Assembly (NCBI RefSeq): GCF_001431705.1
Contig: NZ_LJWX01000002.1
Span: 563,352-587,351, forward strand
Direction of reading: 5' to 3'
Origin: Ferrovum sp. JA12
Lineage (GTDB): Bacteria; Pseudomonadota; Gammaproteobacteria; Burkholderiales; Ferrovaceae
DNA: 24,000 nucleotides
The notes beneath the pieces are model-generated. The model searched no databases. It saw nothing but the letters and a program-made list of their open reading frames with translations, and had not been told where the DNA came from. Positions 1 through 13,925 of the stretch are shown here, one piece after another. Every line of letters starts with the position of its first letter. Position 1 is the stretch's first letter. A program made the translations under genes and the position numbers.

Positions 1-2
1 CG

Positions 3-263
3 CCGTTGCAACTGGCGTTGGCCCGAGGTCATCGCTGGCTGGCCATGCTGGAATCGGGAGAGGTGAAAACCATGCGGGAATTGGCTAGCCGTGAGGGTGT
101 GGACAACAGCTACGTCAGCCGGATGATCAATTTGACGCTGTTGTCGCCGTGGACAGTTGCGGCCATCCTGGACGACACGCTACCGAACCACATCACGCTG
201 TTCGATCTGGCGGTCGATCCGCCGGCGTTGTGGGATGAACAGCGTGATCGGGTTGTGCTCTGA
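3..263 (+). CDS. C-terminal part of an HTH-type accessory protein of a serine-recombinase module. Paralogue of 10580..11029; 5' end cut by the window edge.
   Basis: The translation LQLALARGHRWLAMLESGE...NSYVSRM.NLT.L.P..VAAILDD.LPNH.TLFDLAVDPPALWDEQR aligns without gaps to the C-terminus of 10580..11029 (~82% aa identity, mostly conservative changes). The ORF is open to the window edge. Confidence 0.7.
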   Translation, partial: PLQLALARGHRWLAMLESGEVKTMRELASREGVDNSYVSRMINLTLLSPWTVAAILDDTLPNHITLFDLAVDPPALWDEQRDRVVL

Positions 264-278
264 GGTGATGACATCACC

Positions 279-797
279 TCAGTTCAATAAGCTTTTGAGA
301 TCCTTCAACATGAGGAACAGGTGATACGGGTCGGTCGGGCTGGGCTCGAATTCCCAGGATTCGTACCATTGCCGCGCGGCATCGTCTTTGGCATGCACAA
401 GCAGGCAGCGGATGCCAGCGATGTCTGCGGCCTGTGCTGTTCGCAGCAGTGCGTCCTTTAGCAGAGCCTGGCCCAGTCCCCGGCGCTGATGTTCCTTATC
501 TACCGCGAGCCGGGCCAGGATCATGACCGGGACCGGGTGGCGCGCCAGCCCCTTCATCACCCTCGACGGTGCGGCTTCCGGATCGACGCTACCGACAGCG
601 AGGCTGTAGAAGCCGACCACCACCTCGCCCTGGCAGCAGACGTAGGTCTGCGCGCTGTTGGCCTTTTGGTTGACGAGCGCGTAGCGCTGCAGGAACTGGT
701 TCAGCCCGGACTGACCACAATCGAAGGCATCGGTCTGATCCGTTGCTGCCAGTTTGCGAACGGGGGCGTAGGGTGACGCTATGGCGTCACCGCTCAA
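279..797 (-). CDS. GNAT-family N-acetyltransferase toxin (TacT/KacT/AtaT-like) of a type II TA pair
   Basis: 172-aa ORF. It has the acetyl-CoA binding motif QRRGLGQALLKDAL and an FDCG motif near the N-terminus, typical of DUF1778-associated GNAT toxins. Its TTG start overlaps the TGA stop of the upstream antitoxin gene (TTGA). Confidence 0.85.
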   Translation of the reverse strand: MSGDAIASPYAPVRKLAATDQTDAFDCGQSGLNQFLQRYALVNQKANSAQTYVCCQGEVVVGFYSLAVGSVDPEAAPSRVMKGLARHPVPVMILARLAVDKEHQRRGLGQALLKDALLRTAQAADIAGIRCLLVHAKDDAARQWYESWEFEPSPTDPYHLFLMLKDLKSLLN

Positions 798-1072
798 CCC
801 AAGACCCCGGGCTCACTCAGCAACTTCTTCAGGCGCGGCTTGCTTTGCACCGGCCGATCCAACGCTTCCTGGAAGGCCTGCCATTGCGCCTTGTCCAGTA
901 CGAACTGGCGACGATCAGCCAGTGTTTGGGCTGCCGCCGTCACGCCCGCGTCGAGCAGGAATTCGCTGACGTTTTTGTGACAAGCGCGCGCAGCTTCCTG
1001 CAGCAGTTGCTTGACTGGTGTGCTTGCTCGGACGTCAATGCGTTCGGTCTTGGAAATATTCAGGGTGCTCAT
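794..1072 (-). CDS. DUF1778-family (TacA-like, RHH) antitoxin
   Basis: Start chosen at the ATG at 1072 (MSTLNISKTERIDVRASTPVKQLLQEAA...), preceded by GGAGG 6 nt upstream. 92 aa, with the typical DUF1778 N-terminus. Overlaps the GNAT gene by 4 nt. The longer track ORF (to 1183) lacks an RBS. Confidence 0.85.
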   Translation of the reverse strand: MSTLNISKTERIDVRASTPVKQLLQEAARACHKNVSEFLLDAGVTAAAQTLADRRQFVLDKAQWQAFQEALDRPVQSKPRLKKLLSEPGVLG

Positions 1073-1100
1073 GGTGGCCCTCCGGACTTTAGATGCTCTT

Positions 1101-1130
1101 ATTATAGTTGTCCGGACGCTGTCCTGACAA
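1101..1130 (-). promoter_or_regulatory. Sigma70-type promoter of the DUF1778/GNAT operon, with an inverted-repeat operator in the spacer
   Basis: Minus strand reads TTGTCA (1130..1125), 18-nt spacer, TATAAT (1106..1101), about 30 nt upstream of the ATG at 1072. The inverted repeat TTGTCAGGAC/GTCCGGACAA (9 of 10 positions complementary) spans the -35 box and spacer. Confidence 0.5.
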
Positions 1131-1240
1131 GTCTTTTTGTTGCCTATTTTGTTGCCTCTGCTCTCAGCCATATGCGTGTGCATCCGCGTTGCGATACGTC
1201 AGGAGTTGTCGATAACTACCGACAAAACGCAAAGATGGTG

Positions 1241-1530
1241 GTTCCCTTCGCCACCCAATGCCGCAATCCAACCGCTTGATTCATCCGCGCGTAACACTTT
1301 GATCGGTATGGCGCTGACTTGTGGCCTTTGCGGACTTCGGGTTGGATTCGGAGAGCGAAGTCGGAGAGAAGAATGGCTGGGAGAGAGTGGAAAGAGGCCT
1401 TGGGTGGGCACTTTGGCTGATCGGTGAAGTCCGCAGGCTTTCGCACGAACCCTCGTAAACACGCGGGAACTGGCGCCATCGGACAAGAAGAAACCCCAAC
1501 CGAGAACGGTTGAGGTTTCATTATTGGTGG
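1241..1530. repeat. Copy 1 of a 290-bp conserved non-coding terminal region. It ends in a degenerate terminator hairpin followed by TTATTGGTGG.
   Basis: Hand alignment to 13636..13925 gives 217/290 identical positions and no indels. Conserved blocks include CTTTGCGGACTTCGG, CGGAGAGAAGAATGGC, AAGTCCGCAGG, AAACACGCGGGAACTG and CCCCAACCGAGAACGGTTG. Confidence 0.85.
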
Positions 1531-1709
1531 TGGAATCGCCGCCAGGTTCAAACCATGTCTGTTACGTGATTGCGAACATGTGAGGATTGGCGCGGAACAC
1601 CGCGGAATCATAATGTTACTACCCGCCGCTCTCGTGTCTCGTGGCTTTCGCCTCAAATTGGCTCTGTCAACATGTCCCGATCACCAATCAGTTCGATCCC
1701 CGTTTTCGC

Positions 1710-1726
1710 AATCGAACCCGCGTCCG
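1710..1726. repeat. Left copy of the 17-bp direct repeat AATCGAACCCGCGTCCG (att-type island boundary)
   Basis: Exact match to 13936..13952, which lies in the T-arm region of the tmRNA gene. The flanking bases differ on both sides. Confidence 0.8.
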
Positions 1727-1733
1727 TAATTAA

Positions 1734-2480
1734 TCAAAGCAGCCGCACCGGGCGTGCAATCTTAGGTCTTCGAGCTTGGCTGGCGGTCTGGAGGTTGGCC
1801 GACTTGGAGAGAATCCGCAGGATTGCCTGGCTGTGGTGATAGATCCGAAAGGCATCTGCGACTGCCTTCTCGACGAATGTGGGCGTCGTCTGCCCGTCAG
1901 CGGGTGGGGACACGACTCCGTCTGGGATGTCACCTGACCATCCCCTAGCAGCCCGAAAACCACTAACGATGTGTGAAAAATGCGGCCAGGCGTGATCCAG
2001 ATGGGCGTCGTCGATGCTGACCATCACGCCAGTCAGTTCGCACGCAACCTGCCCCTGAGCATCCCCATGCTCTGCGAAGGCACGCTTCTTGGCCAGAACG
2101 AGGTCGAGCGCCACAGCCTCCCGGCATGCTCCATAGAAGTCTTTTGACCGGTCCCCAGGTAGACCTTTGACGGCCCAGATGTAAGAAAAGTCTGTGGCGG
2201 AACCGTCCTGACGTACGACCCAGAATCCGGAATTGCTCCAGCCAGTACCAGTATTCAAGCGCCGCTCAAAGTAATCGATTTGGCCGCTACCCTTCGTCGG
2301 TTCTCCGACCTCCTCAAGAATCGGGTCATATCGTTCGATGAGGGCAACGAGGTCGGCGTGGTCCCCCGGGTCAGAGATACGATCCCCGTCCTGGTACCGG
2401 TGTAGCAGTGCCTTGTAATGGTCCAGTGCGCTTTTCTGGGTCCGGAAGCTGCGGGGTCCAATCTCGACGGGTTTTGCCAT
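1734..2480 (-). CDS. DUF3223-like protein with a C-terminal HNH-like (DH...P) segment
   Basis: 248-aa ORF with a strong RBS (GAGGAGAGGAAACC-ATG). N-terminal pattern F.T...A...Y..LL.RY..G..I......DL.AL..R...........G.G.I..F......G......F.VVR.DGS..DFSY resembles DUF3223. The C-terminus has CELTG......DDAHLDHAWP.F. The stop is 7 nt from the left direct repeat. Confidence 0.55.
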   Translation of the reverse strand: MAKPVEIGPRSFRTQKSALDHYKALLHRYQDGDRISDPGDHADLVALIERYDPILEEVGEPTKGSGQIDYFERRLNTGTGWSNSGFWVVRQDGSATDFSYIWAVKGLPGDRSKDFYGACREAVALDLVLAKKRAFAEHGDAQGQVACELTGVMVSIDDAHLDHAWPHFSHIVSGFRAARGWSGDIPDGVVSPPADGQTTPTFVEKAVADAFRIYHHSQAILRILSKSANLQTASQARRPKIARPVRLL

Positions 2481-2765
2481 GGTTTCCTCTCCTCACTACT
2501 GACAAACAGCAGATACGACGCTACCGACAAACAGCTCGATCCCGCACATCAAAGTAAATCACGCCAGCGTCTCTGGCTTGAGGTGAAGCTCTGCGAAATT
2601 CTGCATGGCGCTCGTACCGATCCTTTTATCGCCACGCCGCTTGTGGTTATCACAATGCGATGTACAAACAAATCAAAATAGAGCAATGGACAAATTCTAG
2701 GGCAGATCATATACTTTCCGCAATAACCCGTATAAGCATTCGCTAACCCGAACGAGCCAGCCAGG

Positions 2766-3071
2766 ATGTCGAACGAACAGCTTGCAGATCTAACCCAGCC
2801 ACAACGCGACCGGCTCGCGTTCGTGGAGTTGCGCGTGCGCTTCATCGGGGAGATACGCCGCCAGGACTTGGTCACGCGGTTTGGCATCCAGTCCGCCGCC
2901 GCATCCAGGGATCTGGCGCCGTACAAGGACTTGGCGCCCGGCAACATCGACTACGACCCCAAGGGCAAGTCCTACGTCCTGGGGCCAGACTTCCGGCCCG
3001 TCTTCGACTTCCCCTCGGATCGGGTGCTGTCGTGGTTGACCCAGCGCTTGAACTTCTTGGCGTTGGGTTGA
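2766..3071 (+). pseudogene. Truncated N-terminal wHTH part of a WYL-type transcriptional regulator. The ligand-binding part is missing.
   Basis: The 101-aa ORF (QRDRLAFVELRVRFIGEIRRQDLVTRFGIQSAAASRDLAPYKDLAPGNIDYDPKGKSYVLGPDFRPVF) matches, from memory, the first ~90 aa of ~300-aa wHTH-WYL regulators. After ~3037 the frame runs antisense into the BRO gene and stops. Confidence 0.45.
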
Positions 3072-3319
3072 TTACTGCCAAGGATGAGCGCATACAGTCC
3101 GGATTCATTGATGTGATTGGTTGGCTGGATGCCTCCTTCTGTAAGGGTGTCACGTTTCGTGACATCCTCTGGATCAACGTGATCGGCAACCGATTTACGG
3201 GCATTGCTGTAACCCAGTACTCCGCACACATCTTTGGCGTTGAACCAAGGCGCATCGGTTTCGTCGAGGCAAACGCGAATGGAATGACTCTCGAAATTAA
3301 ACGGGATAATATTGCTCAT
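2972..3319 (-). CDS. BRO-N domain protein (phage antirepressor family), truncated at the C-terminal end of the domain
   Basis: FNFESHSIRV...APWFNAKDVCGVLGY.N.....A...H.....DV........TEGG.Q....INESGLYALILGSNQPNAKKFKRWV is a textbook BRO-N pattern. The expected ..EVLPSIRK.G.Y is replaced by 21 unrelated residues. The ATG overlaps the upstream stop by 4 nt. Confidence 0.75.
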   Translation of the reverse strand: MSNIIPFNFESHSIRVCLDETDAPWFNAKDVCGVLGYSNARKSVADHVDPEDVTKRDTLTEGGIQPTNHINESGLYALILGSNQPNAKKFKRWVNHDSTRSEGKSKTGRKSGPRT

Positions 3320-3819
3320 TGTTGATTCTCCTTTACGAGAGCAAGGCGGTAGCTGGCCTTGCCCGATTTGACGGTGCGGGCCTTGGCAAACGACTCCTTG
3401 AGCGTTGCAGGCCAGGCGTTGAAACGGGATTCAGAAACCGAGTACTCGATGTCGATGTAGTCGCTGACTTTGTCGCCGGAAGCCGTGATGCGATGAGCAA
3501 TCTCGGCCAGTTGGACCTGATCCCACGCGACACGCTTCGGCACATCGACGGTGATCCGCAGCGGACCGTCATCGAGATGGCAGACGCCGAAATCACGTCC
3601 ATTTGCCTGACGGGCGGCCGTAGCCTGTTCGGCATAACGCTGGTCGAGAGCAGCATGGAAGCGTTCCAGCACACCCTTGATGGCCGACTGCAACGTGAGC
3701 AGATTGGTATGCGTTTCCTGCAACTGCGCTACAGGCAACGCAGCGATCTGAGCGACGCTCATTTCGGCCAGAGGCAGAACGTGGCCGAACACGACATTTG
3801 TGATGGTGGAATCGTTCAT
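3316..3819 (-). CDS. Hypothetical protein (167 aa) with a coiled-coil-like N-terminal half. Middle gene of the AlpA-like operon.
   Basis: Long ORF with a 4-nt start/stop overlap to both neighbours. No motif recognised. Confidence 0.65.
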   Translation of the reverse strand: MNDSTITNVVFGHVLPLAEMSVAQIAALPVAQLQETHTNLLTLQSAIKGVLERFHAALDQRYAEQATAARQANGRDFGVCHLDDGPLRITVDVPKRVAWDQVQLAEIAHRITASGDKVSDYIDIEYSVSESRFNAWPATLKESFAKARTVKSGKASYRLALVKENQQ

Positions 3820-4067
3820 ATGCGATCCCTCCCCGTGGTGGCTGAGGCTGGAACAACCCTAGTGCTCGGACTCTCGTGCAGGCAGTCGAGCTCGAATTGC
3901 TCGATGTCTTCAAGGCGGTACATCACCTTGCCGCCGATCTTGAGGTACCTGGGGCCGACGCCATCGGACCGATAGCGTTCTATGGTGGCTTCCGACTTGT
4001 TCCAGCGATCCGCAAGTTCCCGCTGGGTCAGATGCCTGGTCTTCAGATGTTCGTCATACATTTGCAT
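3816..4067 (-). CDS. AlpA/excisionase-type (MerR-like) HTH DNA-binding protein
   Basis: LTQRELADRWNKSEATIERYRSDGVGPRYLKIGGKVMYRLEDIEQFE is the typical excisionase-family HTH_17 pattern. Start taken at the ATG at 4067, just after AAGGAG (the ATG at 4061 is equally possible). The track start at 4190 is TTG with no RBS. Confidence 0.7.
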   Translation of the reverse strand: MQMYDEHLKTRHLTQRELADRWNKSEATIERYRSDGVGPRYLKIGGKVMYRLEDIEQFELDCLHESPSTRVVPASATTGRDRI

Positions 4068-4207
4068 CTCCTTCGATGATGGGTGTTCACCGGTTGCTGG
4101 TGCCTGGATCAGCACTGCTAACCGATGCGTCCATTTCATCAAGCGAGATGCCCCCGACCGTCCCTCAGATTCCTCAAGATCGTTCCTCAAATTGAATCGG
4201 TGGGTCT

Positions 4208-4249
4208 AAAAAGCAAAAAACCCGGCTGGATTGAAACCAGAGCCGGGTT
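4208..4249 (-). terminator. Rho-independent terminator ending the five-gene minus-strand cluster
   Basis: Minus strand reads AACCCGGCT, 13-nt loop, AGCCGGGTT, then TTTTGCTTTTT. It lies 31 nt downstream of the stop at 4280. Confidence 0.7.
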
Positions 4250-4279
4250 ATTGCGGAGAAGCGAGGGGTGACAGGTGGT

Positions 4280-5245
4280 TCAGTGCAACCAGTCGCGGTC
4301 GTCGTCAGGAATGATCAGAGCGTAGCGTTCATCGTCGCGCAGGTAACGGATGAATGCCCTGTAGACTTCTGGATTGCGCTCAAACTCCTTGCTGGGTGAA
4401 AACCGCTGGGATTGCGATCCGCAAGCGGTCTTGAGCGATTCCTTATCCAATTCATGATCCAGATCGTCGATCAGTGCAACCAGGATCTTTTGTTGGCGTG
4501 GCTCCAGCGGATACTCGGTACCATCGATGAACGCCTTGGCTTTGTCTCTGACGTAGCGGAGTGTGGTGTTTGGCGATGCCTCATCCAGAATTTGAGGACC
4601 AGGTGCCGATTGGCGCTCAGGGAAAAACTCGAACTTGCTCTGGCCGACGCGGCCAACTGTGAACAGCGGGCGCACGTCGAATTCGGTCAGTGCCGAGCCC
4701 GCCGGAAGCGGTACCTCGCTACTGGTCAAAATGACGCAGGATTGCGTAGTTCTTTCTGTGGTGATCTGTTCGCGCAGGCGAATCGCAATTTCCGGCCGAT
4801 GCAGGCGGCGAGCGAAATACCATGTCACCGGCTTGCCACGCTGTTTCTCGGTCGTGCCGAGCCGCCAGATCAGATCGAGTTCGATCTGCTTCATGCCGTT
4901 GACCGAGAGTTCGAGCCCGTTCAGCAGGCTCGAAACAAATTTCTGCAATGCCACCTTGTAGGTTTCGCGCAAATGCCCAGGTGCCACCACGTCGGCGCAT
5001 TCCGGACAGTGCAGAATAAACTCGCCAGGCGATTTTTCTCGTACCACGTGCGCGGTCTCGATGCCGCATTCCGGGCAAGTGACCCAGTCGAGCGGCTTGC
5101 CCAGCACCAGTACACGTTCACGAAGCAGGTGCGTGGCCGCGACCTTGTCCCGTCCTTCCAAAAGAGACTGCCCATTGATTTCCGGCTTCGCCAGATCCAG
5201 AAGCCGGCAAAACAACGCCGTTGCATCGACCTGCGCCTGACTCAT
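4280..5245 (-). CDS. Hypothetical protein (321 aa) with an N-terminal CxxC...CxxC zinc ribbon. Third gene of an unknown triplet.
   Basis: CPECGIETAHVVREKSPGEFILHCPEC is present. There is no Walker A or recognisable nuclease motif. The ATG overlaps the upstream stop by 4 nt and a terminator follows. Confidence 0.75.
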   Translation of the reverse strand: MSQAQVDATALFCRLLDLAKPEINGQSLLEGRDKVAATHLLRERVLVLGKPLDWVTCPECGIETAHVVREKSPGEFILHCPECADVVAPGHLRETYKVALQKFVSSLLNGLELSVNGMKQIELDLIWRLGTTEKQRGKPVTWYFARRLHRPEIAIRLREQITTERTTQSCVILTSSEVPLPAGSALTEFDVRPLFTVGRVGQSKFEFFPERQSAPGPQILDEASPNTTLRYVRDKAKAFIDGTEYPLEPRQQKILVALIDDLDHELDKESLKTACGSQSQRFSPSKEFERNPEVYRAFIRYLRDDERYALIIPDDDRDWLH

Positions 5246-6150
5246 TCGCCTTCCTCGTCCCCGGTCGAGGCGATCTCAGTCGGCTCGTCTGGCTCGACGA
5301 CATTCAAGGCAAGCAGCACGGCATTGGCGATGGCCTGATTCTGCGCGGACAGGTTCTTGATCGTTGAGGAGCCCGACGAAAATAGATCAAAGCTGAAATA
5401 ATGGTTCTTTCCCTTGTCACGCGTATCTGTATAGACGATGACGCTAGCTCCTTCCATGTTGTATTCCGCCTCGAAGGAGCGATCGACCTTCAGCGCATTG
5501 AGGGCAATCCGGATCGCATCGTCCTGATCCTTGTCGGGGGATGCCTCCACCTGAAAGGCGATTCCAGTACTTCCTGACGGACAGAAACGTGCGCGCCGCA
5601 AGCGGACTTTGTCGATACCGAGGGTCGACCAGTCCTCGAATGGCTCCATCAGCCCGTCGCGCAGGGCATTGAGCTGGTAGCGCTTCTTTTCGATCACCTC
5701 AGGCGTGAGTTCCTGGGCAACGACATGCTTGCCGAACAGTTGCAGCACGGCGGTGTGGTTCTTCGCACCTCCCTTGACGATGGTCTCCACGATGCCTGAG
5801 CCGGGATGGTAGACGATGGCTGTTTCCAGCGCAATGCGGGTCGTGAGTCGCGTAAAATTGTTCTGGGCAAAGTGCGCGAGGGCAGTCACAGGCCCTTCGA
5901 CATAGATCGTGAGTTGAATGCTTTCATCGACCGGGCGCTCGCTGACCTCGATATGGATGCCGTCGCCAGCGCCGTCCTTCTTGTAGAGTTTGGCGACATC
6001 GTGACAGAAAGCCTCGAGTTGGGTGCGGTCGCGCGTGGGGTCGAGTCCCGCCTGGATGCGATGCTTCTTCCAGTACTTGCCATTGGTCTTGGCCTGGAAG
6101 GCGATGTGCAGTTCGGCATCACGGAACGTCTTTTCACGGTTGGTCATCAT
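5242..6150 (-). CDS. Hypothetical protein (302 aa) with an acidic C-terminal tail. Second gene of the unknown triplet.
   Basis: Long ORF with normal amino-acid composition, overlapping both neighbours by 4 nt. No motif recognised. Confidence 0.75.
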   Translation of the reverse strand: MMTNREKTFRDAELHIAFQAKTNGKYWKKHRIQAGLDPTRDRTQLEAFCHDVAKLYKKDGAGDGIHIEVSERPVDESIQLTIYVEGPVTALAHFAQNNFTRLTTRIALETAIVYHPGSGIVETIVKGGAKNHTAVLQLFGKHVVAQELTPEVIEKKRYQLNALRDGLMEPFEDWSTLGIDKVRLRRARFCPSGSTGIAFQVEASPDKDQDDAIRIALNALKVDRSFEAEYNMEGASVIVYTDTRDKGKNHYFSFDLFSSGSSTIKNLSAQNQAIANAVLLALNVVEPDEPTEIASTGDEEGE

Positions 6151-6512
6151 CCAGAGGGCGCTTTCACGCTCGTCGCGCGATGCGAAGTCCTCCTGGAGGC
6201 CTGATCATCGGCACAGGCACAGCGGAATTCCTGAATGGCCAGATTGTTTGACATCATGTGGGCGCGACGCAGGTCATCATGCCAGAGCCACAAATCATGC
6301 TCGATGGCTTTGCGCCCTGTCGGGTCAATAGCGGGATCGCGCAAAGAAGCATCGAGGGCTTCAACCGCATCAGCCACGGCGGCGGGTAGCGTCTCGGGAG
6401 GTTGCGTCCAGTCGACGAGCAGCCTCGCGCCAAGGATATGCCCGTCAGTGAATTCCTGAAGCGTCGGCATCGAGACATGCCGCAGAAAGTGCCGAGCGTT
6501 GAAAACCTTCAT
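6147..6512 (-). CDS. Hypothetical protein (121 aa). First gene of the unknown triplet.
   Basis: ATG at 6512 preceded by AAAGGGGAACAGGA. The stop overlaps the next start (ATGATGA). The last ~25 residues are low-complexity (see finding on a possible split gene). Confidence 0.6.
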   Translation of the reverse strand: MKVFNARHFLRHVSMPTLQEFTDGHILGARLLVDWTQPPETLPAAVADAVEALDASLRDPAIDPTGRKAIEHDLWLWHDDLRRAHMMSNNLAIQEFRCACADDQASRRTSHRATSVKAPSG

Positions 6513-6630
6513 TCCTGTTCCCCTTTCATTCAGCCATTCAAAAATTCATAAGCAATCCTCCCGGCATGACTGGAAGTTGGCCCGGATTTCTTGTCTACGA
6601 ATCAAGACCACGGCGCCATCATGCCGTCGG

Positions 6631-7152
6631 CTATGGAATGATGCCCATCCGAATCTTGGTCTTGATGCTCGAAAGCCAGTCTTCCCGGTATTGCAGGGCA
6701 AATGCATCGAGGTTGGCGCGACCGACTCCTGCCTGGCGTGCCAGATATTCCAGAGAGACTGCGCAGTCGAGCCAGCCGAGTGCGTGTGTGGCAATCAATG
6801 CCGCCTTATCGGCGGTGGTCACGACCACGATGGCCGAAGGCAACAGGTTGTTGGCGAGCAGCCAGGCCAGCAGATGCTTCTCACCATCGTCGAGCGTGCC
6901 GCAGGACGGATGGGCGAGTACCACGGACGCCAGTTCCTTGCGCGTCACCGGATGCTGTCCGGCAAGACCTTCGTTCAGTTCGGCAGGAGGAACCGCGATG
7001 TGACGGGGATCAGACGGGTTGCCGGTGAGCGTCTCCTCGACGCACTTCTGAACTGTTTCGATCGCAAAATGGCTGCTGATTGCCGTCCAGCAGCCGGTTC
7101 GAAATGCTTCGAGGATGACGTTGGTATCGGCAAAGACTCGGGTTTTCGGCAT
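6631..7152 (-). CDS. PIN-domain-like nuclease (putative toxin/effector partner of the XRE-ImmA protein)
   Basis: N-terminal VFADTNVILEA, then LDDGEKHLLAW and VVTTADKA, fit the acidic triad spacing of PIN folds. It starts 12 nt after the ImmA gene stop. Confidence 0.65.
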   Translation of the reverse strand: MPKTRVFADTNVILEAFRTGCWTAISSHFAIETVQKCVEETLTGNPSDPRHIAVPPAELNEGLAGQHPVTRKELASVVLAHPSCGTLDDGEKHLLAWLLANNLLPSAIVVVTTADKAALIATHALGWLDCAVSLEYLARQAGVGRANLDAFALQYREDWLSSIKTKIRMGIIP

Positions 7153-7164
7153 ACGGTCCGCACC

Positions 7165-8286
7165 TCATAACTCAAACGGTGCTGGGAGATCGTACTGGGC
7201 GAACAGTTCGGTCAGACCACCAAGACCCAGCCCCATGGCTTTTGCTGCCTTGCGGGCCGACAGTCGTCCATTCTCCAATGACTCGTGCAGCATGCGCACG
7301 AAGGCAACGGAGAACCGCTTGGGGGGGCCTGACACCGAGGGTCGCTGCTTCTCTTGACAGAGATTGCGACGGGTGTCGTCACTGATGAGCTTGAGGTTGA
7401 ACAACCGCCACGCCAATGCCACCGGCGCCACGCGCAGCAGCGCTGCGACTTCGCACAGGTGGGGGATGTCATCCCGGCGATTGCCATCGATCAGTTGGGT
7501 CAATGAAATGCGCGGCATCAACAGGGCAGCGGCAAAGTTGTTCGCCAATTGCTCGATGCGTTTTCCCTTGTTGCGTTCCTCGATGGAATTCGATTCCCGA
7601 TGATCGGGTTGCATCGCATCCCAGGTGAGCGCATGAAAAAGCTCGTGCGCCAGATCGTAGTAGCGACGCGCCTCGCTCTCGTTGCGGTTGATGAGTATGA
7701 CGCCCATTTCCTCGAGGTGGCATGTCGCACCCGAGATGGATTGTCCTTCGCCAGCGTCAACCGTATCGACGAACAGCACCGGGATGTCCAGTTCGCGCTC
7801 GATCTTGTCGATCAGGGTTTCTGCCGGAATGATACCCAGGTCCAGTTCGGCAACGAGACTCTCTGCACGATCCTGTGCATCCTCGAACGATGACTGGGCA
7901 GACAGACGCAACGCGCGCTTGAGCACGCTTGCCCGGCCGCCTTGCCGTTCACGCAGCCAGCGGAGCAGGCCAATCCACTGACCAGCCTTCAATTCGAACC
8001 CGTCCAGACTGTCCTCAGGAACCTCGGGTGCCGTCCGCCACGAGAACTGTGCTTCTCCAGCCACGGCAAAAGGATCCACGAAAAACTCGATGTCACGATC
8101 CAGGAGGTCGGACAGCGCCAGCAGTTCCTCGGGCTTCAGCGCGCGCTTGCCGTTTTCGATGTCAGAAATCGACTGGCGGTCGTTCAGGCCCAATTCCTGG
8201 GTGAGTTGATCCTGCGTCCAGCCCGCCGCATCGCGCGCGGCTTTGACGCGGTAGCCGATCAATTTTTGCGAAATCTTTTCGAGCAT
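7165..8286 (-). CDS. XRE-family HTH fused to an ImmA/IrrE (COG2856, M78) zinc metallopeptidase domain
   Basis: The N-terminus GWTQDQLTQELGLNDRQSISDIENGKRALKPEELLALSDLL is an XRE HTH. The core has YDLAHELFHAL (HExxH) followed by EQLANNFAAALLMP, the ImmA/IrrE signature. Confidence 0.9.
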   Translation of the reverse strand: MLEKISQKLIGYRVKAARDAAGWTQDQLTQELGLNDRQSISDIENGKRALKPEELLALSDLLDRDIEFFVDPFAVAGEAQFSWRTAPEVPEDSLDGFELKAGQWIGLLRWLRERQGGRASVLKRALRLSAQSSFEDAQDRAESLVAELDLGIIPAETLIDKIERELDIPVLFVDTVDAGEGQSISGATCHLEEMGVILINRNESEARRYYDLAHELFHALTWDAMQPDHRESNSIEERNKGKRIEQLANNFAAALLMPRISLTQLIDGNRRDDIPHLCEVAALLRVAPVALAWRLFNLKLISDDTRRNLCQEKQRPSVSGPPKRFSVAFVRMLHESLENGRLSARKAAKAMGLGLGGLTELFAQYDLPAPFEL

Positions 8287-8305
8287 GGTTACCCCCTAAA
8301 CCAGT

Positions 8306-8334
8306 ATTTTAGTATTGCGTATTTAGAAAGGCAA
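8306..8334 (-). promoter_or_regulatory. Candidate sigma70 promoter for the XRE-ImmA cluster
   Basis: Minus strand reads TTGCCT (8334..8329), 17 nt, TAAAAT (8311..8306), ~20 nt upstream of GGGGG-N5-ATG at 8286. It sits in an AT-rich divergent intergenic region with GTATTT(T)AG direct repeats. Confidence 0.4.
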
Positions 8335-8505
8335 GAATTAATTGCTACTTGTTATTTGCATGAATTGTGCGTAAGTGTGGTCTGTGACCTTACTTCCGCA
8401 GTCACCTGCAGACGTTCGCAACGCTTGTCAATTCTGCGATGGAGAAAGACGATCTCCTTGCCCAGAATATCCATCAAGTAATTTTTATTGATGGAGTGCC
8501 CGACC

Positions 8506-8745
8506 ATGATGACAGCAAACTTGATTGACCCAACCCGAATGACCATCGAGGAACGACGAGCGGAAGTCGCATCGATACTGGCGCTCGGCGTTATGCGGTT
8601 GCGAACGAAGCCGGATGCGTTGGCCGAGAAAAATGAACCGCCTTATCTTGACTTCTGCCCACCACAACGCGTTCATACAAACCCGTCATCACGAGTTCGC
8701 AGCGCCATCCGCGAGGTGCTGCTGACCAAACAGAAAGGAGTTTGA
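8506..8745 (+). CDS. Small hypothetical protein (79 aa), first gene of the recombinase module
   Basis: ATG at 8506 lies 10 nt after GGAG. The stop at 8743..8745 abuts the ATG of the next gene at 8746. The start choice is uncertain (the track ORF starts at 8488). Confidence 0.5.
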   Translation: MMTANLIDPTRMTIEERRAEVASILALGVMRLRTKPDALAEKNEPPYLDFCPPQRVHTNPSSRVRSAIREVLLTKQKGV

Positions 8746-9231
8746 ATGAGCAAGAAAACCGTAGTCTCAGGCGTGATCGGCCGAATCGCGCACCTGCCCG
8801 ACACACCATTCGAAGAAATCAAATCGCTGTGGCAACAGATTTTCGCCACCCCCATGCCCACGCACAACCGTCAGTTTCTGGAACGGCGTATTGCCTACCG
8901 ACTGCAGGAAATCGAGTTTCGCAAAATTGATCGTAACCTGATGGATCGGAATGACCGTCGCATCAAAACCATCATAGAAACGGGCCAGAACAAAAAGCGC
9001 GATCGCGATCACCGTCCGGTTGCCGGTACATTGTTGACTCGGGAGTACAAGGGAGTAATTCACAAAGTGGTGGCAACCCCCGATGGTCAATATGACTTTC
9101 AGGGGCGTATGTACCCAAGCCTCTCCATGATTGCACGGGAGATCACCGGGACACGGTGGTCTGGTCCATTGTTCTTCGGGCTCAAGCCGTCAGCTACGAA
9201 ACCCACCTCCAAGAAAGGAGGTTGTCGATGA
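8746..9231 (+). CDS. DUF2924-like protein (usual partner of large serine recombinases)
   Basis: FLERRIAYRLQE ... G..L.REYKG..H.V......G.Y.F.GR.Y.SLS.IAREITGTRWSGPLFFGLK matches my recollection of DUF2924. The stop overlaps the recombinase ATG (ATGA), and AAAGGAGG lies inside its 3' end. Confidence 0.75.
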   Translation: MSKKTVVSGVIGRIAHLPDTPFEEIKSLWQQIFATPMPTHNRQFLERRIAYRLQEIEFRKIDRNLMDRNDRRIKTIIETGQNKKRDRDHRPVAGTLLTREYKGVIHKVVATPDGQYDFQGRMYPSLSMIAREITGTRWSGPLFFGLKPSATKPTSKKGGCR

Positions 9232-10583
9232 GCGAAGCACTGAAACGCCGTATGCGCTGCGCGGTCTACACGCGCAAGTCCACCGACGAGGGGCTGGACC
9301 AGGAATACAACTCGATCGACGCACAACGTGATGCGGGGCATGCCTACATCGCCAGCCAGCGCGCCGAGGGATGGATTCCGGTGGCAGACGACTACGATGA
9401 TCCGGCCTTCTCGGGCGGCAACATGGAACGCCCATCGCTGCGACGATTGATGGCCGACATCGAGGCCGGCAAGATCGATGTGGTCGTCATCTACAAGATC
9501 GACCGCCTGACGCGCAGCCTCGCGGACTTCTCCAAGATGGTCGAGGTGTTCGAGCGCTATGGCGTGTCGTTCGTGTCGGTCACCCAGCAATTCAACACCA
9601 CCACGTCGATGGGGCGGCTGATGTTGAACATCCTGCTGTCCTTCGCACAGTTCGAGCGCGAGGTCACCGGCGAGCGCATCCGCGACAAGATCGCCGCCAG
9701 TAAGCGCAAGGGCATGTGGATGGGCGGCGTGCCTCCCCTCGGTTACGACGTCGAGAACCGCCGACTGGTGCCCAACGAACGTGAGGCCAAGCTCATCCGG
9801 CACATCTTCCAGCGCTTCGTTGAACTGGGCTCCAGCACGATGCTGTTCAAGGAGCTGAAGCTCGACGGCGTGACGTCCAAGGCGTGGACCACGCAGGACG
9901 GCAAGACCCGAGACGGCAAGCCGATCGACAAGGGGCTGATCTACAAGCTGCTCAACAACCGGACCTACCTCGGTGAACTGCGCCACAAGGAGCAGTGGTA
10001 CCAGGCCGAGCATCCACCGATCATCGACCGAGAGTTGTGGGACAAGGTGCACGCCATCCTCGCCACCAACGGTCGGGTTCGCGGCAACGCCACCCGGGCG
10101 ACGGTGCCGTACCTGCTCAAGGGCATCGTGTTCGGCAACGACGGTCGCGCCTTGTCGCCGTTTCACACCACCAAGAAGAACGGTCGCCGCTACCGCTACT
10201 ACGTGCCGCAGCGCGAGAACAAGGAGCACGCGGGCGCGTCTGGGCTGCCACGGCTGCCGGCTGCAGAGCTTGAGTCCGCCGTGCTGGACCAACTGCGCGC
10301 GGTCCTGCGATCGCCGGATCTCCTGGGCGACGTCCTGCCACGAGCGATCGAACTCGACCCCAGCCTCGACGAGGCGAAGGTCACCGTCGCCATGACGCGG
10401 CTCGACGCCATATGGGAGCAGCTCTTCCCAGCCGAGCAGACGCGCATCGTCAAGCTGCTGGTCGAGAAGGTGATCGTGTCGCCCAACGACCTGGAAGTGC
10501 GGCTGCGCGCCAACGGCATCGAGCGTCTGGTGCTGGAACTGCAGCCAGCCGGCGCGGCCCAGCCCGAGGAGGCATTGGCATGA
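9228..10583 (+). CDS. Large serine recombinase (resolvase/invertase catalytic domain plus recombinase domain)
   Basis: CAVYTRKSTDEG contains the catalytic Ser context. Also present: DRLTRSL, GVSFVSVTQQFNTTTSMGRLMLNILLSFAQFEREVTGERIRDK, and GGVPPLGYD of the recombinase domain. 451 aa from the ATG at 9228. Confidence 0.95.
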   Translation: MSEALKRRMRCAVYTRKSTDEGLDQEYNSIDAQRDAGHAYIASQRAEGWIPVADDYDDPAFSGGNMERPSLRRLMADIEAGKIDVVVIYKIDRLTRSLADFSKMVEVFERYGVSFVSVTQQFNTTTSMGRLMLNILLSFAQFEREVTGERIRDKIAASKRKGMWMGGVPPLGYDVENRRLVPNEREAKLIRHIFQRFVELGSSTMLFKELKLDGVTSKAWTTQDGKTRDGKPIDKGLIYKLLNNRTYLGELRHKEQWYQAEHPPIIDRELWDKVHAILATNGRVRGNATRATVPYLLKGIVFGNDGRALSPFHTTKKNGRRYRYYVPQRENKEHAGASGLPRLPAAELESAVLDQLRAVLRSPDLLGDVLPRAIELDPSLDEAKVTVAMTRLDAIWEQLFPAEQTRIVKLLVEKVIVSPNDLEVRLRANGIERLVLELQPAGAAQPEEALA

Positions 10584-11029
10584 GCGAGATCCGCATCCAG
10601 AAGACGGGCGAGCCCGACGTCATCGAGGCCAGTGATGGGCGGCTGACTTTGTCGGTGCCGATCCAGATCAAGCGGCGCAGCGGGCGCAAGCTGGTCACGC
10701 TGCCGATCGACCCGGTGACGGGCGAACCAGCCAAGGCCAGACCCTGGGACACGGCCACCACGCCGTTGCAACTGGCGCTGGCCAGGGGTCACCGCTGGCT
10801 GGCCATGCTGGAGTCGGGCGAGGCCAAGTCCCTCAAGGAGATCGCCGCCCGGGAAGGGATCGACAACAGCTACGTCAGCCGGATGGTCAACCTGACCACG
10901 CTGGCACCCGACATCGTGGCGGCCATCCTGGACGATGCATTGCCGAACCACGTCACGCTGTTTGATCTGGCGGTTGATCCGCCAGCGCTGTGGGATGAGC
11001 AGCGGGCGAGACTTACAGTGAGCGGTTGA
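10580..11029 (+). CDS. HTH-type accessory protein downstream of the serine recombinase (possible directionality or targeting factor)
   Basis: The ATG overlaps the recombinase stop (ATGA). The C-terminal 85 aa are conserved in the paralogue at 3..263. The IAAREGIDNSYVSRMVNLTTLAPDIVAAIL segment looks like an HTH. Confidence 0.75.
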   Translation: MSEIRIQKTGEPDVIEASDGRLTLSVPIQIKRRSGRKLVTLPIDPVTGEPAKARPWDTATTPLQLALARGHRWLAMLESGEAKSLKEIAAREGIDNSYVSRMVNLTTLAPDIVAAILDDALPNHVTLFDLAVDPPALWDEQRARLTVSG

Positions 11030-11031
11030 TG

Positions 11032-11949
11032 CTACGTGACCAGGTCAGCTGTCAGCTTTTCCACCAACTCATTCGTGCTCGGCGCGTACGTTGGCAGCTG
11101 TCGCTGTGCTTGTCGAAATATCCCGACAAGTAAGCACGCCGTGAAGAGCCAGTAGTGCGACTCCTTGGCGAGCGGGCTGCCGGATATCATCGTCTGGATG
11201 CGCGTAGTAATCGGCGGATATTCCGCTGTTCCCCACCGAGCGCTTTCCGGGGTTATTTCGTGCAAGATCATTGCACCGAGTGCGATTCCCATTGATCGCT
11301 TATCCAGAACCCTTCTGAAAGCCTGGCCAACAGACTGGGCATAGTTTCCAATCTTGTCGGTCAGAAATGACCTTGCCCAGACATCGCATGCAATCTCTTC
11401 TTCGCGCCGGTCGGCGGGGTAGTCGCCGTCACTGAGAAATTTCACGTGCCGAAGTTCATGAAGAAAGACATAGGCGGTCGCCAGACAGACTAAGTCGAAA
11501 GCCGCCATTTCTTGATGGCTGCCGAGCGTTTCTCTATCGGCTTCAGGACGCGGAACATCTTGCGGCCAGGTGGTGTGCACCGAACTTTGCCCTTCGATGA
11601 TCGATCGAGCTGAATTTGAGCGAGACCTGTAATCCATCTCGAAAGAAGCAAGCTCGCCATCGGCGCGCAGTATGTCTTCAAGGGCCCCACCAGTGATGCC
11701 GGCGAGAATGATCGCTGGAGAGTACGTCTCGATTGATCTCCACCCATTGAAACCGAGCAGCCAGATTGCCTCGAGTGTCTTGTGGTCAAACTGGATGCGA
11801 CCCTTGCCCGCGCTGATGTTCACGCCTCGAGCGTCGTCGACTAGGCAGATCTTGGGTGCATAGCGATCCCATAGGTCCTCAATGTCTTGTTTTCGCTCAG
11901 GCGTGGCGCCTTGCAGCAGAGCCTTAACAGCGATGACTGCTTCAACCAT
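11032..11949 (-). CDS. HExxH zinc-metallopeptidase-like protein (305 aa), possibly Lit/peptidase-U49-like. Coupled to AbiEii.
   Basis: Start taken at the ATG at 11949 (MVEAVIAVKALL...), which overlaps the AbiEii stop (ATGGTTGA). It has YVFLHELRHVKF at residues 161-172 and EEEIACDVWARSFL ~20 aa later. The longer track ORF (to 12039) would run antisense-free but overlaps abiEii by ~100 nt. Confidence 0.6.
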   Translation of the reverse strand: MVEAVIAVKALLQGATPERKQDIEDLWDRYAPKICLVDDARGVNISAGKGRIQFDHKTLEAIWLLGFNGWRSIETYSPAIILAGITGGALEDILRADGELASFEMDYRSRSNSARSIIEGQSSVHTTWPQDVPRPEADRETLGSHQEMAAFDLVCLATAYVFLHELRHVKFLSDGDYPADRREEEIACDVWARSFLTDKIGNYAQSVGQAFRRVLDKRSMGIALGAMILHEITPESARWGTAEYPPITTRIQTMISGSPLAKESHYWLFTACLLVGIFRQAQRQLPTYAPSTNELVEKLTADLVT

Positions 11950-12964
11950 TGCTGCACCCATTGATCGTTGTTTCCAGCGCGCGCAGACGATCGGCGATGG
12001 CGTCGAAGGCGGGTGGCTCGCCGATGAACATGCCGGCACCGATCATGCGCTGGAAGTCATCGCGCAGCGCGGCCAGTGCGGCATCTTCCGGAATGAGTCT
12101 GAGCTGCCCGGCCAGGCATGCGTCGTAGTTGGCGTAGCTCGCGTTGTAGAAGACCTTTTTGTGCTTGACGACATCCGCGAGCAGAGCGCGATCGGCCAGA
12201 GCGGCTTGCCCATGGGCAAGATCAGCCAGCATGGCCAGGTCGTACCAGTGGCGTGACAAACGTTCGGCGCCAGTACGGAACTCGTCGCGCTGACACTCGA
12301 CGTGCATCAACGTCGCCTTCTCCCAGAAGGTACGCGCCGGGGACAGCACACTGACCTTCGAACGAGGAAAATCGAGCGCAGCGACATGCTCCGCGATGTC
12401 GGGCCGTACCTCATGCTTTTCGTTCGGCTCGGTGATGTTGCGACCACCGAACTCAATCAGGACGCTGTTGCCAACGTAGTCCCCCGGCGCATCAAGCACG
12501 GTCGGGTAGTGCACACGCAACTGCTCGCCGTCATCGCTGACTTCAAGCTGGAATGCGCCGGCATCGAACTCGGCTGCCAGTGTCCGCTGAAAGTGCGGTG
12601 CCACAACACCATGAGCATGATCGCGCACGAAGGACTTGAGATCCTCGCTGAATTTTTTCAGCCGATTGCGCGAGACGCCTTCGGCAAACGGATCGAAGGA
12701 ACCGTCCAAGCCACGGTAGTCGAGCGTGATGTCCACGTCTTCGGAGAAGCGTGCGATGGCTCCGAACACTTTGGATAGCGAGGTGCCACCCTTGAAGGCC
12801 ATCGGAAGTCGGCCGGGCATGGTGAACAGGGTCTGCAGCACCCAGCAGACCCAGACATCTTTTTCCAGGACTACGGGCGAGCGGGCAAGCTGCGGAGCCA
12901 GTGCCCGATAGATTTGGGACTGCTCTTGAGCTTTCAGGTGCAGGAAGGACTCAGGCATGAACAA
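11942..12964 (-). CDS. AbiEii/AbiGii-family nucleotidyltransferase toxin (DUF1814)
   Basis: EKDVWVCWVL..LF.......AFKGGTSLSK......RFSEDVDITLD is the characteristic N-terminal NTase motif of AbiEii. It overlaps the AbiEi gene by 14 nt. Confidence 0.85.
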   Translation of the reverse strand: MFMPESFLHLKAQEQSQIYRALAPQLARSPVVLEKDVWVCWVLQTLFTMPGRLPMAFKGGTSLSKVFGAIARFSEDVDITLDYRGLDGSFDPFAEGVSRNRLKKFSEDLKSFVRDHAHGVVAPHFQRTLAAEFDAGAFQLEVSDDGEQLRVHYPTVLDAPGDYVGNSVLIEFGGRNITEPNEKHEVRPDIAEHVAALDFPRSKVSVLSPARTFWEKATLMHVECQRDEFRTGAERLSRHWYDLAMLADLAHGQAALADRALLADVVKHKKVFYNASYANYDACLAGQLRLIPEDAALAALRDDFQRMIGAGMFIGEPPAFDAIADRLRALETTINGCSNG

Positions 12965-13571
12965 CCGTCCGCTCGCTCCGGAAGATGGCGTCGCTCATCC
13001 ATGCGGGCATTGAACTGGTGGCTGACTTCAGCACCCCGAATTCGCTTGATCCCAGCTTGCGCCGAATCTTCTCGACGAGAGCCGGCGTTACTTCCGTCTT
13101 GCCGAGGTACCACATCGCCGCAAGCGCGAGCCCGGCGGGTCGACCCGCCAAGGCCAACTTGCGCTGACAGACGTGCTGCAGACGGATCTCCATCTTCCCT
13201 ACGCGGATGCGCTTCGACGGGCCGGATGTCACGAATACCGACTGGGTCGGAACCTGCGTGGTCAGCTCGAGCCGACGCGCCGCTTCGGCACCGTGAACCT
13301 GGACGACGGCGCCAGTGGTCTTGGCGACCGTCTCGGCGACCTTCAAAGGCGAGGGACTAACCTTGCCGACGAAACGGCTAACCTCGGGGCGCACGAAGAC
13401 GCCGCGCGTCACACGCTCAATCGATCCTGCTTTGACGAGGCGGGAGAGGGTCTGATCGACGGACGCGCGCGTGCCGCACTCCAGGAATGCCGTTGGGGTG
13501 AAGGGCTCCCCAATCGGCATCGTCTCGATGCGCTGGCGAATCAGCTCGGCGGTCTTGGTCGTCGTGTTCAT
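12951..13571 (-). CDS. AbiEi-family (type IV TA) antitoxin / transcriptional regulator
   Basis: Start taken at the ATG at 13571 (MNTTTKTAELIRQRIETMPIGEPFTPTAFLECGTRASVDQTLSRLVKAGSIERVTRGVFVRP). This is the typical AbiEi N-terminal wHTH. The track ORF extension to 14024 crosses the terminator and tmRNA and is an artefact. Confidence 0.85.
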   Translation of the reverse strand: MNTTTKTAELIRQRIETMPIGEPFTPTAFLECGTRASVDQTLSRLVKAGSIERVTRGVFVRPEVSRFVGKVSPSPLKVAETVAKTTGAVVQVHGAEAARRLELTTQVPTQSVFVTSGPSKRIRVGKMEIRLQHVCQRKLALAGRPAGLALAAMWYLGKTEVTPALVEKIRRKLGSSEFGVLKSATSSMPAWMSDAIFRSERTVVHA

Positions 13572-13578
13572 GTATGAA

Positions 13579-13607
13579 AATATACGTGAGTTTCTGACAA
13601 ACAGCAA
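13579..13607 (-). promoter_or_regulatory. Candidate abiEi promoter giving a leaderless or near-leaderless mRNA
   Basis: Minus strand reads TTGCTG (13607..13602), 17 nt, TATATT (13584..13579), then only 7 nt (TTCATAC) before the ATG. There is no Shine-Dalgarno sequence. Confidence 0.45.
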
Positions 13608-13635
13608 GTGTGATGACTCACAGGGAGATGCTCGT

Positions 13636-13925
13636 GTTCCCTCCGGCAGCCAATGCTGCAATCCAACCGATTGAACGGTCCGCGCGTAACCCGTTGATTT
13701 CAAGGGGTGCCGGACCGGGTCTTTGCGGACTTCGGCGCATTCGCGGAGAGCGAGGCCGGAGAGAAGAATGGCCAGGAGAGAGCGAAAGGTTGCCGAGAAC
13801 GGGCCAGATGGCCGACCGGCCAAGTCCGCAGGTTTCCGCAGGAACCCGCGCAAACACGCGGGAACTGTCGCTGTCAGACGAGAAAAAGCCCCAACCGAGA
13901 ACGGTTGGGGCTTCGTTATTGGTGG
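13636..13925. repeat. Copy 2 of the 290-bp conserved non-coding terminal region. Includes the tmRNA terminator and the last bases of the tmRNA.
   Basis: See copy 1. Offset is exactly 12,395 nt, with 217/290 identities by hand count and no indels. Confidence 0.85.
13878..13912 (-). terminator. Rho-independent terminator of ssrA, carried on the island side
   Basis: Minus strand has the 11-bp stem AGCCCCAACCG/CGGTTGGGGCT with a 4-nt loop, followed by TTTTTCTCGTC. It starts 7 nt after the tmRNA CCA end. Confidence 0.75.

Follow-up and report, generated by a model that had tools for sequence, protein, structure and literature searches.

The 24,000-nt stretch of Ferrovum sp. JA12 DNA analyzed here (the window) probably represents the ssrA-proximal part of a tandem array, in which an intact island with a phage WO-type recombinase module adjoins the remnant of a related element, crossover takes place at the CCA end of the transfer-messenger RNA (tmRNA) gene ssrA, and the cargo of a slot is replaced by recombination. 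The island belongs to a family of elements that sit at the CCA end of ssrA, turn over their cargo between fixed borders, and occur both in arrays and as remnants. Genes for a DUF2924 protein, a large serine recombinase (LSR), and an accessory protein (acc) are followed in the island by the cargo slot and by a noncoding 290-bp end module. The intact island (about 1531-13925) is 12.4 kb long, is high in GC, and abuts the 3′ CCA end of ssrA, its integration target (13920-14284, minus strand; found by ARAGORN with the tag ANDDNYALAA and by Rfam RF00023 with 216 bits). GC content is 52 to 67% to the left of ssrA versus 39 to 53% in the host genes to the right.

Two conserved blocks and the cargo slot

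A preliminary description of the window had pointed to two blocks that recur in the same order and orientation with unrelated cargo between them, and both a repeat search of the window and a BLASTN search against it bear this out. Three direct repeats were found (1-244 versus 10761-11004, 79% identity; 1349-1533 versus 13744-13928, 79%; 1241-1303 versus 13636-13698, 83%), with constant offsets of 10760 and 12395. The first repeat is the 3′ end of acc; its nucleotide identity had been put at about 80%, close to the 79% measured, while the likeness of the proteins holds at a lower figure, 78% (acc residues 62-149 against window positions 3-266) instead of about 82%. The end module, which had been described as about 75% alike in its two copies, aligns at 76.7% over 296 columns (13636-13925 versus 1241-1530; E 3.8e-56), a match far beyond chance. 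Pairwise alignment also agrees that homology in the gene block stops sharply, directly after TGTGGGATGA(A/G)CAGCG, and the homology of the terminal block reaches TGGTGG at 1525-1530 and 13920-13925. That conserved ends frame the slot is therefore correct for the 290-bp block, which is terminal, but not for the acc 3′ end, which lies in an internal gene and is no end of the element.

When genomes were scanned with an alignment of acc, relatives turned up in those of 390 species, and 80 of these loci were fetched (loci and contigs are labeled L with a number); acc homologues number more than 2701. The order of recombinase, acc, variable DNA, and 290-bp end module, all in the same orientation, recurs in about 70 of the 80 fetched loci, which upholds the earlier suggestion of a family of serine-recombinase elements with a cargo hotspot at ssrA. 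The collected homologues and their cataloged cargo contradict the notion of a slot without variable content, since slot length varies between 12 bp and 9.5 kb: acc and the end module are separated by 12 bp in L066, 27 bp in L015, 56 to 57 bp in L003 and L009, and up to 9.3 to 9.5 kb in L018 and L035. The 208 open reading frames (ORFs) found in slots form 107 clusters. Everywhere, the left slot border follows CTGTGGGATGAGCAGCG, the right border lies at GTTTCCTTCGCC..ATGCTGCAATCCAACCGCTTGATTCGTCCGCGCGTAAC, and the same break points are seen on both sides in about 65 loci.

In 261 pairs of loci, the acc 3′ ends (last 250 nt) are at least 93% identical and the cargo has zero similarity (for example, L035/L041 with 98.8% and L067/L075 with 99.6% acc 3′-end identity). 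Likewise, the same cassette is found in diverged backbones, where it is often more similar than its flanks, with a jump in identity at the borders; in L019/L033, the cargo is 98.8% identical, acc 93.5%, and the end module 88.1%. Because closely related acc ends carry unrelated cargo and the same cassettes occur in diverged backbones, the stretch bounded by the acc terminus (...LWDEQR) and the beginning of the end module is well supported as a hotspot of swappable cargo.

The island slot contains genes for a Lit-like zinc protease associated with phage exclusion (11032-12039, minus strand; NCBIfam PRK09672, E 2.3e-95, 319 bits versus a cutoff of 274; Peptidase_U49), an AbiEii nucleotidyltransferase toxin (11942-12964, minus strand; Pfam AbiEii, E 1.5e-40), and an AbiEi/DUF6088 antitoxin-regulator (12951-13574, minus strand; Pfam DUF6088, E 3.7e-27, and AbiEi_4). 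On the left, the cargo consists of a TacT-like GNAT acetyltransferase toxin (279-797, minus strand; Pfam Acetyltransf_7/1/10) and a TacA (DUF1778) antitoxin (794-1072, minus strand; Pfam TacA1, E 5.6e-26). All of these profile matches agree with the cargo assignments first made for the two slots. The GNAT/TacA cassette is found in the slots of 13 other loci (14 in total), an identical TacA protein is encoded on contigs L081 to L084, and several AbiEi/AbiEii types occupy about 21 loci. Further recurrent cargo comprises Lit, TOTE/PDC-M16, ABC-3C/DUF2326, and DUF4238; PDC-M68 is present as well. By locus counts, antiphage systems are prominent in the slot, but the slot is not exclusive to defense: mer genes, ars genes, an outer-membrane efflux protein, a LysR regulator, and a Mutator-family transposase are also found. 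An exchange of toxin-antitoxin (TA) or defense cargo had been proposed, which is right as to the variable slot and too narrow as to its content; the mechanism of exchange is one that we infer (see below). The orientation bias of the cargo is weak (47 versus 35 clusters).

An unannotated protein of 380 to 410 amino acids (aa), with no Pfam or PADLOC match, fills the slot in eight loci (L055, at 742-1974, and L005, L029, L035, L038, L049, L058, and L072). A conserved block, ...GGTAAAATTG...GGTGCCCACCTTACTTGCACACGAG, always lies upstream of its gene. The protein is a candidate defense or addiction gene product.

The recombinase module

The LSR gene (9156-10583, plus strand) encodes a protein of 475 aa with Resolvase, Recombinase, and Zn_ribbon_recom domains (PF00239, E 1.3e-39; PF07508, E 8.9e-14; PF13408, E 3.4e-7), which aligns with residues 12-412 of phage WO gp31 (35% identity, E 3e-92). 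Directly upstream, the DUF2924 gene (8746-9231, plus strand; Pfam DUF2924, E 3e-40) encodes the presumed partner of the recombinase, which is 29% identical to phage WO gp30 (E 2e-22). This DUF2924-LSR arrangement recurs in 44 fetched loci. Downstream, acc (FERRO_15940; 10580-11029, plus strand; 149 aa, phrog_14161) starts within the recombinase stop codon (ATGA) and aligns with the C terminus of gp31 (residues 391-509 of 514; 29% identity, E 3e-14), including the terminal LW(S/D)EQR. Because acc, the LSR, and the DUF2924 protein align with the end of gp31, with gp31, and with gp30, respectively, acc is the split-off C-terminal helix-turn-helix (HTH) domain of a phage WO-type LSR, encoded by a separate, translationally coupled gene. 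It shows a weak ParB/SopB-HTH match; a search of solved structures with the acc profile gave nothing meaningful. The left break of the slot falls at the end of this domain, and WO gp31 also ends 5 residues past its LWSEQR motif.

The last 25 or so residues of the recombinase and the first 25 or so of acc (10500-10660) align with the same segment of gp31 (about 388-415). It seems from this overlap that the gene split duplicated a linker or strand segment. A second ORF with a resolvase domain (DsiA-like) was not found in the island.

Probable integration at the CCA end of ssrA

In 38 loci, nothing separates the end module from a complete tmRNA gene. In every one of these 38 occupied ssrA genes, the acceptor and T stems are perfect; the genes have among them 16 different 3′ 20-mers that pair with the host 5′ strands, and elements whose end modules are 92 to 97% identical differ at 2 to 4 of the last 20 nt of ssrA. 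Because nearly identical elements differ there, the 3′ stretch of ssrA is host DNA, which places the crossover at or beside the CCA (TGGTGG). At the middle junctions (in the window, L069, L091, and L112), the end module and TGGTGG are followed by sequence other than ssrA. At the far junction, TGGTGG is followed by TGGAATCGCC..., and no displaced 3′ fragment of ssrA is present. Sequence copied from ssrA is limited there to 17 nt of the T-arm (1710-1726), which are not contiguous with the CCA and lie 180 bp inside the left end; the junctions share TGGTGG. A crossover in the T-loop/T-arm of ssrA, as this 17-nt repeat and the Dehalococcoides precedent (see below) would have it, was rejected in view of the 3′ 20 nt that follow the host and of the middle junctions, which lack acceptor sequence.

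In many contigs listed as viral in IMG/VR (L089 to L242), including some of 40 to 52 kb, the module lies 0.4 to 2.5 kb from the contig end, and in two IMG/VR contigs TGGTGG is the very end of the sequence. Full-size prophages, and not only 12-kb islands, may be served by the same integration module and slot. In Ralstonia phage YO134_1 (L087; ON170227.1, 1-2300; P2-like, Peduoviridae), the recombinase and acc are accompanied by an empty slot and a diverged end module, after which come a 26-nt fragment of the ssrA 3′ end and the 3′ end of an apparent tyrosine-integrase gene. Such an order would fit a mixed array: the serine-recombinase phage may have entered ssrA first and a tyrosine-integrase element later.

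The end module

In the island, the end module (13636-13925) contains an inverted repeat (13725-13732 and 13822-13829) and a terminator hairpin (13888-13911), and it ends in TGGTGG (13920-13925), the complement of the CCACCA 3′ end of ssrA. The copy on the left (1241-1530) has the inverted repeat GCGGACTT (1330-1337) and AAGTCCGC (1427-1434), a hairpin resembling a terminator (about 1493-1516), and the same end (1525-1530). The left copy, 55 further sequences, and the island's own copy were aligned. In this alignment of 57 sequences, mean column identity is 84%, and homology stops exactly at TGGTGG. The hairpin lies directly after the CCA and shows compensatory changes from AU to GC and from CG to UA, in 13 sequences each; the end module is predicted to supply a replacement terminator for ssrA.

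The inverted repeat GCGGACTT...AAGTCCGC is invariant, can be extended to 13 bp, and has a fixed 89-bp spacing. Its span is 105 nt in 59 of 70 distinct sequences, and it is present in 98 fetched loci. It is kept where acc is only 53 to 71% identical, for example, in Ralstonia phage YO134_1 (acc 53%). We would guess that the inverted repeat binds a protein. The repeat extends over 13725-13829 and 1330-1434, arms included, and its spacer is purine-rich, with GGAG(C/A)GAGG repeats.

Two other identities were considered for the end module. As a structured RNA, it gave only tmRNA and weak terminator-like matches in Rfam, and RNAalifold (57 and 70 sequences) found covariation only in the terminator hairpin and otherwise supported only the invariant outer stem, with no helices or pairing inside the inverted repeat. 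As a small gene, it showed codon-position entropies of 0.47, 0.42, and 0.57, i.e., no clear coding signal.

The left unit, arrays, and decay

The left end of the window, with the 3′ part of a second acc gene (acc′, FERRO_15790; 1-263, plus strand; 146 aa, full protein P0121), could be extended with two contigs, L086 (100% identical over window positions 1-360, extending 1.6 kb) and L081 (96% over 11 kb, extending 8 kb). Upstream of acc′, both contain a Fic/DUF4172 gene and no recombinase, and acc′ begins with an unrelated HTH-like segment in place of its first 13 residues. The left unit is thus 3.2 kb long and consists of a block here called X, Fic, acc′, the TA pair, and its end module, lying between two junctions of the type end module-TGGTGG-X, with no recombinase match. 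It is a recombinase-less remnant flanked by att sites, similar to a cis-mobilizable element (CIME). Other Ferrovum metagenome-assembled genomes (MAGs) and metagenome contigs encode proteins that share 95% identity with acc′, and cassettes in other genera match the TA cassette of the left unit at 82 to 85%. Further left, L081 contains a third end module, which is more diverged. As regards the tandem elements first described, stacking at ssrA is confirmed, but the left copy is a decayed, CIME-like unit and no full element; the leftward extension that had been called for found no second recombinase but did find a junction repeat of its own and the third end module. The third unit (L081 13560-13700 and 13814-19293) lacks acc and recombinase; beside its end module lie genes for another Fic protein, for an IS240-family transposase, and for an HNH_2 protein, along with a small zinc ribbon-like ORF.

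Remnants and arrays are common in the family. Among 62 acc copies with enough upstream sequence, 47 are preceded by a full recombinase, 11 by a 5′-truncated one, and 4 by none; in 15 of 57 cases, what comes after the end module is not ssrA. Two end modules each are present in L014, L017, L030, L038, and L069, and three units are present in L081. L030 (10001-14855) is composite, with acc, a TA pair, a fragment of the end module (23-147), a fragment of acc (residues 104-143), 2.8 kb of cargo, a full end module, and ssrA. The join between the end-module fragment and the acc fragment of the next unit is the product expected of a deletion inside an array, and L030 looks like a deletion scar that would have fused two stacked elements into one with two cargos.

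The left end and the backbone of the island

Block X (1531-1727), the putative left (P′) end of the island, starts with TGGAATCGCC and ends in the 17-nt T-arm copy of ssrA. On its other side, the left unit is flanked in L081 (12588-12793) and L086 by a second copy of X (206 bp) with 98% identity; in L081, the block also occurs at 9317-9555. The X copies are closer to each other (98%) than are the units that they accompany (only about 77%). In L014, L052, L117, and L118, TGGTGG is likewise followed by an X-like block, and shorter versions, TGGA[AC]CA[CT]GGAACCGAACCCGCGTCCG, are seen in L067, L069, and L112. Such blocks may represent an arm of an att site, a short inserted sequence, or neither. 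Deletions in this region occur in close Ferrovum metagenome contigs: L082 lacks 1518-1589, including the TGGTGG junction, and L083 lacks 1643-1780.

The backbone of the island (1734-8676, minus strand), as identified by Pfam and PHROGs matches, comprises genes for DUF3223, BRO-N, phrog_2480, HTH_17 (AlpA-like), and an HTH-XRE/ImmA-IrrE fusion, and ORFs of 321, 302, 121, and 173 aa without assignment. Only HTH_17 (18 of 28 full-length loci) and orf167 (14 of 28) recur in relatives. Recombinase copies from Comamonadaceae, Lysobacterales, and others share 92 to 97% protein identity with that of the island; for the recombinase-acc region (9156-11029), the same range was observed with L003 to L006, which derive from Polaromonas, Ramlibacter, Lysobacterales, and a gammaproteobacterial MAG. 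The GC content of the host flank is about 15% below that of the island. Because of this identity and this difference in GC content, the sequences point to a recent transfer across families. AbiE, Lit, and TacAT reached Ferrovum on foreign, high-GC elements.

Proposed mechanism and alternative explanations

In the mechanism that we propose, the recombinase would cross over at the CCA end of ssrA (TGGTGG on the plus strand), and the whole tmRNA gene would remain host-derived; an attP circle would then read ...GTTATTGGTGG|TGGAATCGCCGCC... The recombinase would mainly recognize the ssrA half of the target, which is the only part conserved across hosts. Because the ssrA half survives integration, occupied sites could be reused and arrays could grow, whereas units farther from ssrA would decay by deletion; the left unit is possibly still mobilizable in trans. 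Cargo would be replaced via homologous recombination between related elements that meet in arrays or coinfections, with crossovers resolved in the two longest invariant stretches, which border the slot.

Several points weigh against this proposal. Serine integrases normally need both attB half-sites, so the recombinase would have to tolerate a P-type half-site. An excised circle, a free attP, and an empty attB were not found; none of the 79 to 91 module-bearing IMG/VR contigs is circular, and L168, whose tail does not match its head, is no circle either. The left end of the island at 1531 is presumed from junction logic rather than from a host flank. The proposal does not account for the 197-bp block X, for the second copy that matches it at 98%, or for the T-arm mimic 180 bp from the proposed crossover, nor does it assign a role to the 240 bp of the end module beyond the terminator. 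Finally, identity jumps exactly at the slot edges in several independent pairs, a pattern that a site-specific process would give as well.

Such a process would resemble that of integrons, in which cassettes are captured site-specifically at two invariant boundary motifs, perhaps by the serine recombinase together with acc. It accords with the same boundaries in about 65 loci with dozens of cargo types, with the pairs L067/L070, L019/L033, and L044/L067, in which identity is about 100% exactly from the slot edges and 75 to 95% in the flanks, and with the invariant inverted repeat at fixed spacing in 98 loci. However, no shared core, site, or repeat was found at the two cassette ends, and the left and right boundary sequences are unlike each other and unlike the TGGTGG junction. 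The C-terminal tail of acc, and in some types a 70-bp block beside the end module, travel with the cargo, which indicates variable join points; the left edge coincides with a conserved domain end, 5 residues beyond which WO gp31 itself terminates; and the join in L030 is illegitimate. Moreover, no tyrosine integrase was found, and the inverted repeat is without internal pairing. We therefore regard capture of this kind as improbable. We find it similarly hard to credit the more specific version, in which the end module is a res-like platform of accessory sites, bound by acc, that together with the motif at the end of acc directs precise, recombinase-dependent exchange of whole cassettes; there, the invariant 8- to 13-bp inverted repeat at fixed 89-bp spacing would provide the candidate acc binding sites. 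If it were true, the family would be a serine-recombinase counterpart of the integron, located at ssrA.

It is unlikely, too, that the slot is simply a permissive intergenic region that owes its diversity mainly to the independent gain and loss of other mobile DNA rather than to exchange among related elements. Empty slots do exist, some slots contain a Mutator-family transposase (L058) or the mer and ars operons typical of transposons, and L035 carries a duplicated pair of 502-aa and 198-aa genes. Yet cargo replaces the acc tail and is not inserted at varied points, the same cassette in diverged backbones is more identical than its flanks, and most recurrent cargo (AbiE, GNAT/TacA, Lit, and TOTE) comes without transposition genes. 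Least credible, in our view, is that positions 1-1530 are an internal duplication of part of one element, with no second element involved, a possibility that the preliminary description had named. The absence of a recombinase upstream of acc′ and the 206-bp X with 98% identity on both sides of the left unit are what one would expect in that case. On the other side, acc′ and its end module are only 77 to 79% identical to the island copies and have their nearest relatives elsewhere (95% identity of acc′ within Ferrovum MAGs and metagenome contigs, 82 to 85% identity of the TA cargo to other genera); the left unit differs from the island in cargo and possesses a Fic gene and junctions of its own; and the more diverged end module further left belongs to yet another unit. 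A tandem array of an intact island and a remnant, with recombination as the source of new cargo, is the explanation that we prefer.

Comparison with known systems

Serine-recombinase elements that stack at the 3′ end of a conserved gene are familiar from staphylococci, in which the staphylococcal cassette chromosome (SCC; CcrAB/CcrC) is inserted at the 3′ end of the essential gene rlmH (orfX). SCC forms tandem composites that include att-bounded, recombinase-less pseudo-elements, which can be moved by the recombinase of a neighbor. The array in Ferrovum resembles these composites in its tandem units at a conserved 3′ end, some of them recombinase-less, whereas SCC differs in its target, rlmH (orfX), and in its use of two recombinase subunits or CcrC.

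The closest precedent at ssrA itself is in Dehalococcoides, where islands with DsiB/CcrB-like recombinases form tandem stacks downstream of ssrA (McMurdie et al. 2011, PMC3146451). There, units without an integration module were read as cis-mobilizable elements formed by accretion (PMC3146451), a mode of formation that has also been reviewed (PMC5704250). Both systems have an ssrA-specific serine recombinase, tandem stacking, recombinase-less units, a module beside one end, and variable cargo. However, Dehalococcoides belongs to another phylum, and the recombinases are related only at the superfamily level (the CcrB model gives 131 bits versus a cutoff of 900); the roughly 540-aa CcrB-family integrase and DsiA of Dehalococcoides are replaced here by an LSR with DUF2924 and a split C-terminal domain, with no DsiA. 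The Dehalococcoides islands insert in the T-loop and leave a 20-bp direct repeat (PMC3146451), in contrast to the family described here, in which the last 20 nt of ssrA come from the host and homology stops at the CCA. A slot bounded by two conserved blocks was not described in Dehalococcoides.

Varied slot content in otherwise similar elements, with many slot genes unannotated, is shared with phages P2 and P4, in which a fixed locus on the integrase side (in P4, between psu and int) carries differing antiphage systems, and for which homologous recombination between coresident elements has been proposed (2022, PMC9122126; PMC13586616). P2 and P4 have tyrosine integrases, enterobacterial hosts, and tRNA targets; in the family described here, the slot is flanked by a recombinase-domain gene and a noncoding end module, the cargo also includes mer, ars, and efflux genes, and the hosts belong to many families of Beta- and Gammaproteobacteria. 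The recombinase module itself resembles that of phage WO, which consists of gp30 (DUF2924) and gp31 (LSR) (AB036666.1; PMC9203015): in both, DUF2924 lies directly upstream of the LSR gene, and the WO prophage boundary lies just downstream of the gene. In WO, however, the C-terminal domain is fused to the recombinase, whereas here it is encoded by a separate gene with a duplicated linker segment. The annotated features beside the recombinase in the WO prophage region (AB036666.1) include no ssrA, 290-bp end module, or cargo slot. The serine-recombinase phages Bcep22 and JC1 were also considered and set aside as a different system, with rimO as their target. Our literature search found no report of serine recombinases at ssrA in Proteobacteria, and DUF2924 was mentioned only in Wolbachia papers.

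Tandem serine-recombinase islands at ssrA, the defense hotspots of P2 and P4, and accretion are thus already known, and in these respects the family would not surprise a specialist. What sets it apart is that its WO-type recombinase is split, that crossover falls at the CCA end, and that its noncoding end module is conserved. The family is large, extends across many families of Beta- and Gammaproteobacteria, and includes IMG/VR contigs of 40 to 52 kb that are predicted proviruses. It offers a natural case in which to study how serine integrases reuse an occupied site, how arrays are built, and how recombinase-less remnants persist, and its two recognizable slot borders lend themselves to automated mining for new TA and antiphage genes.

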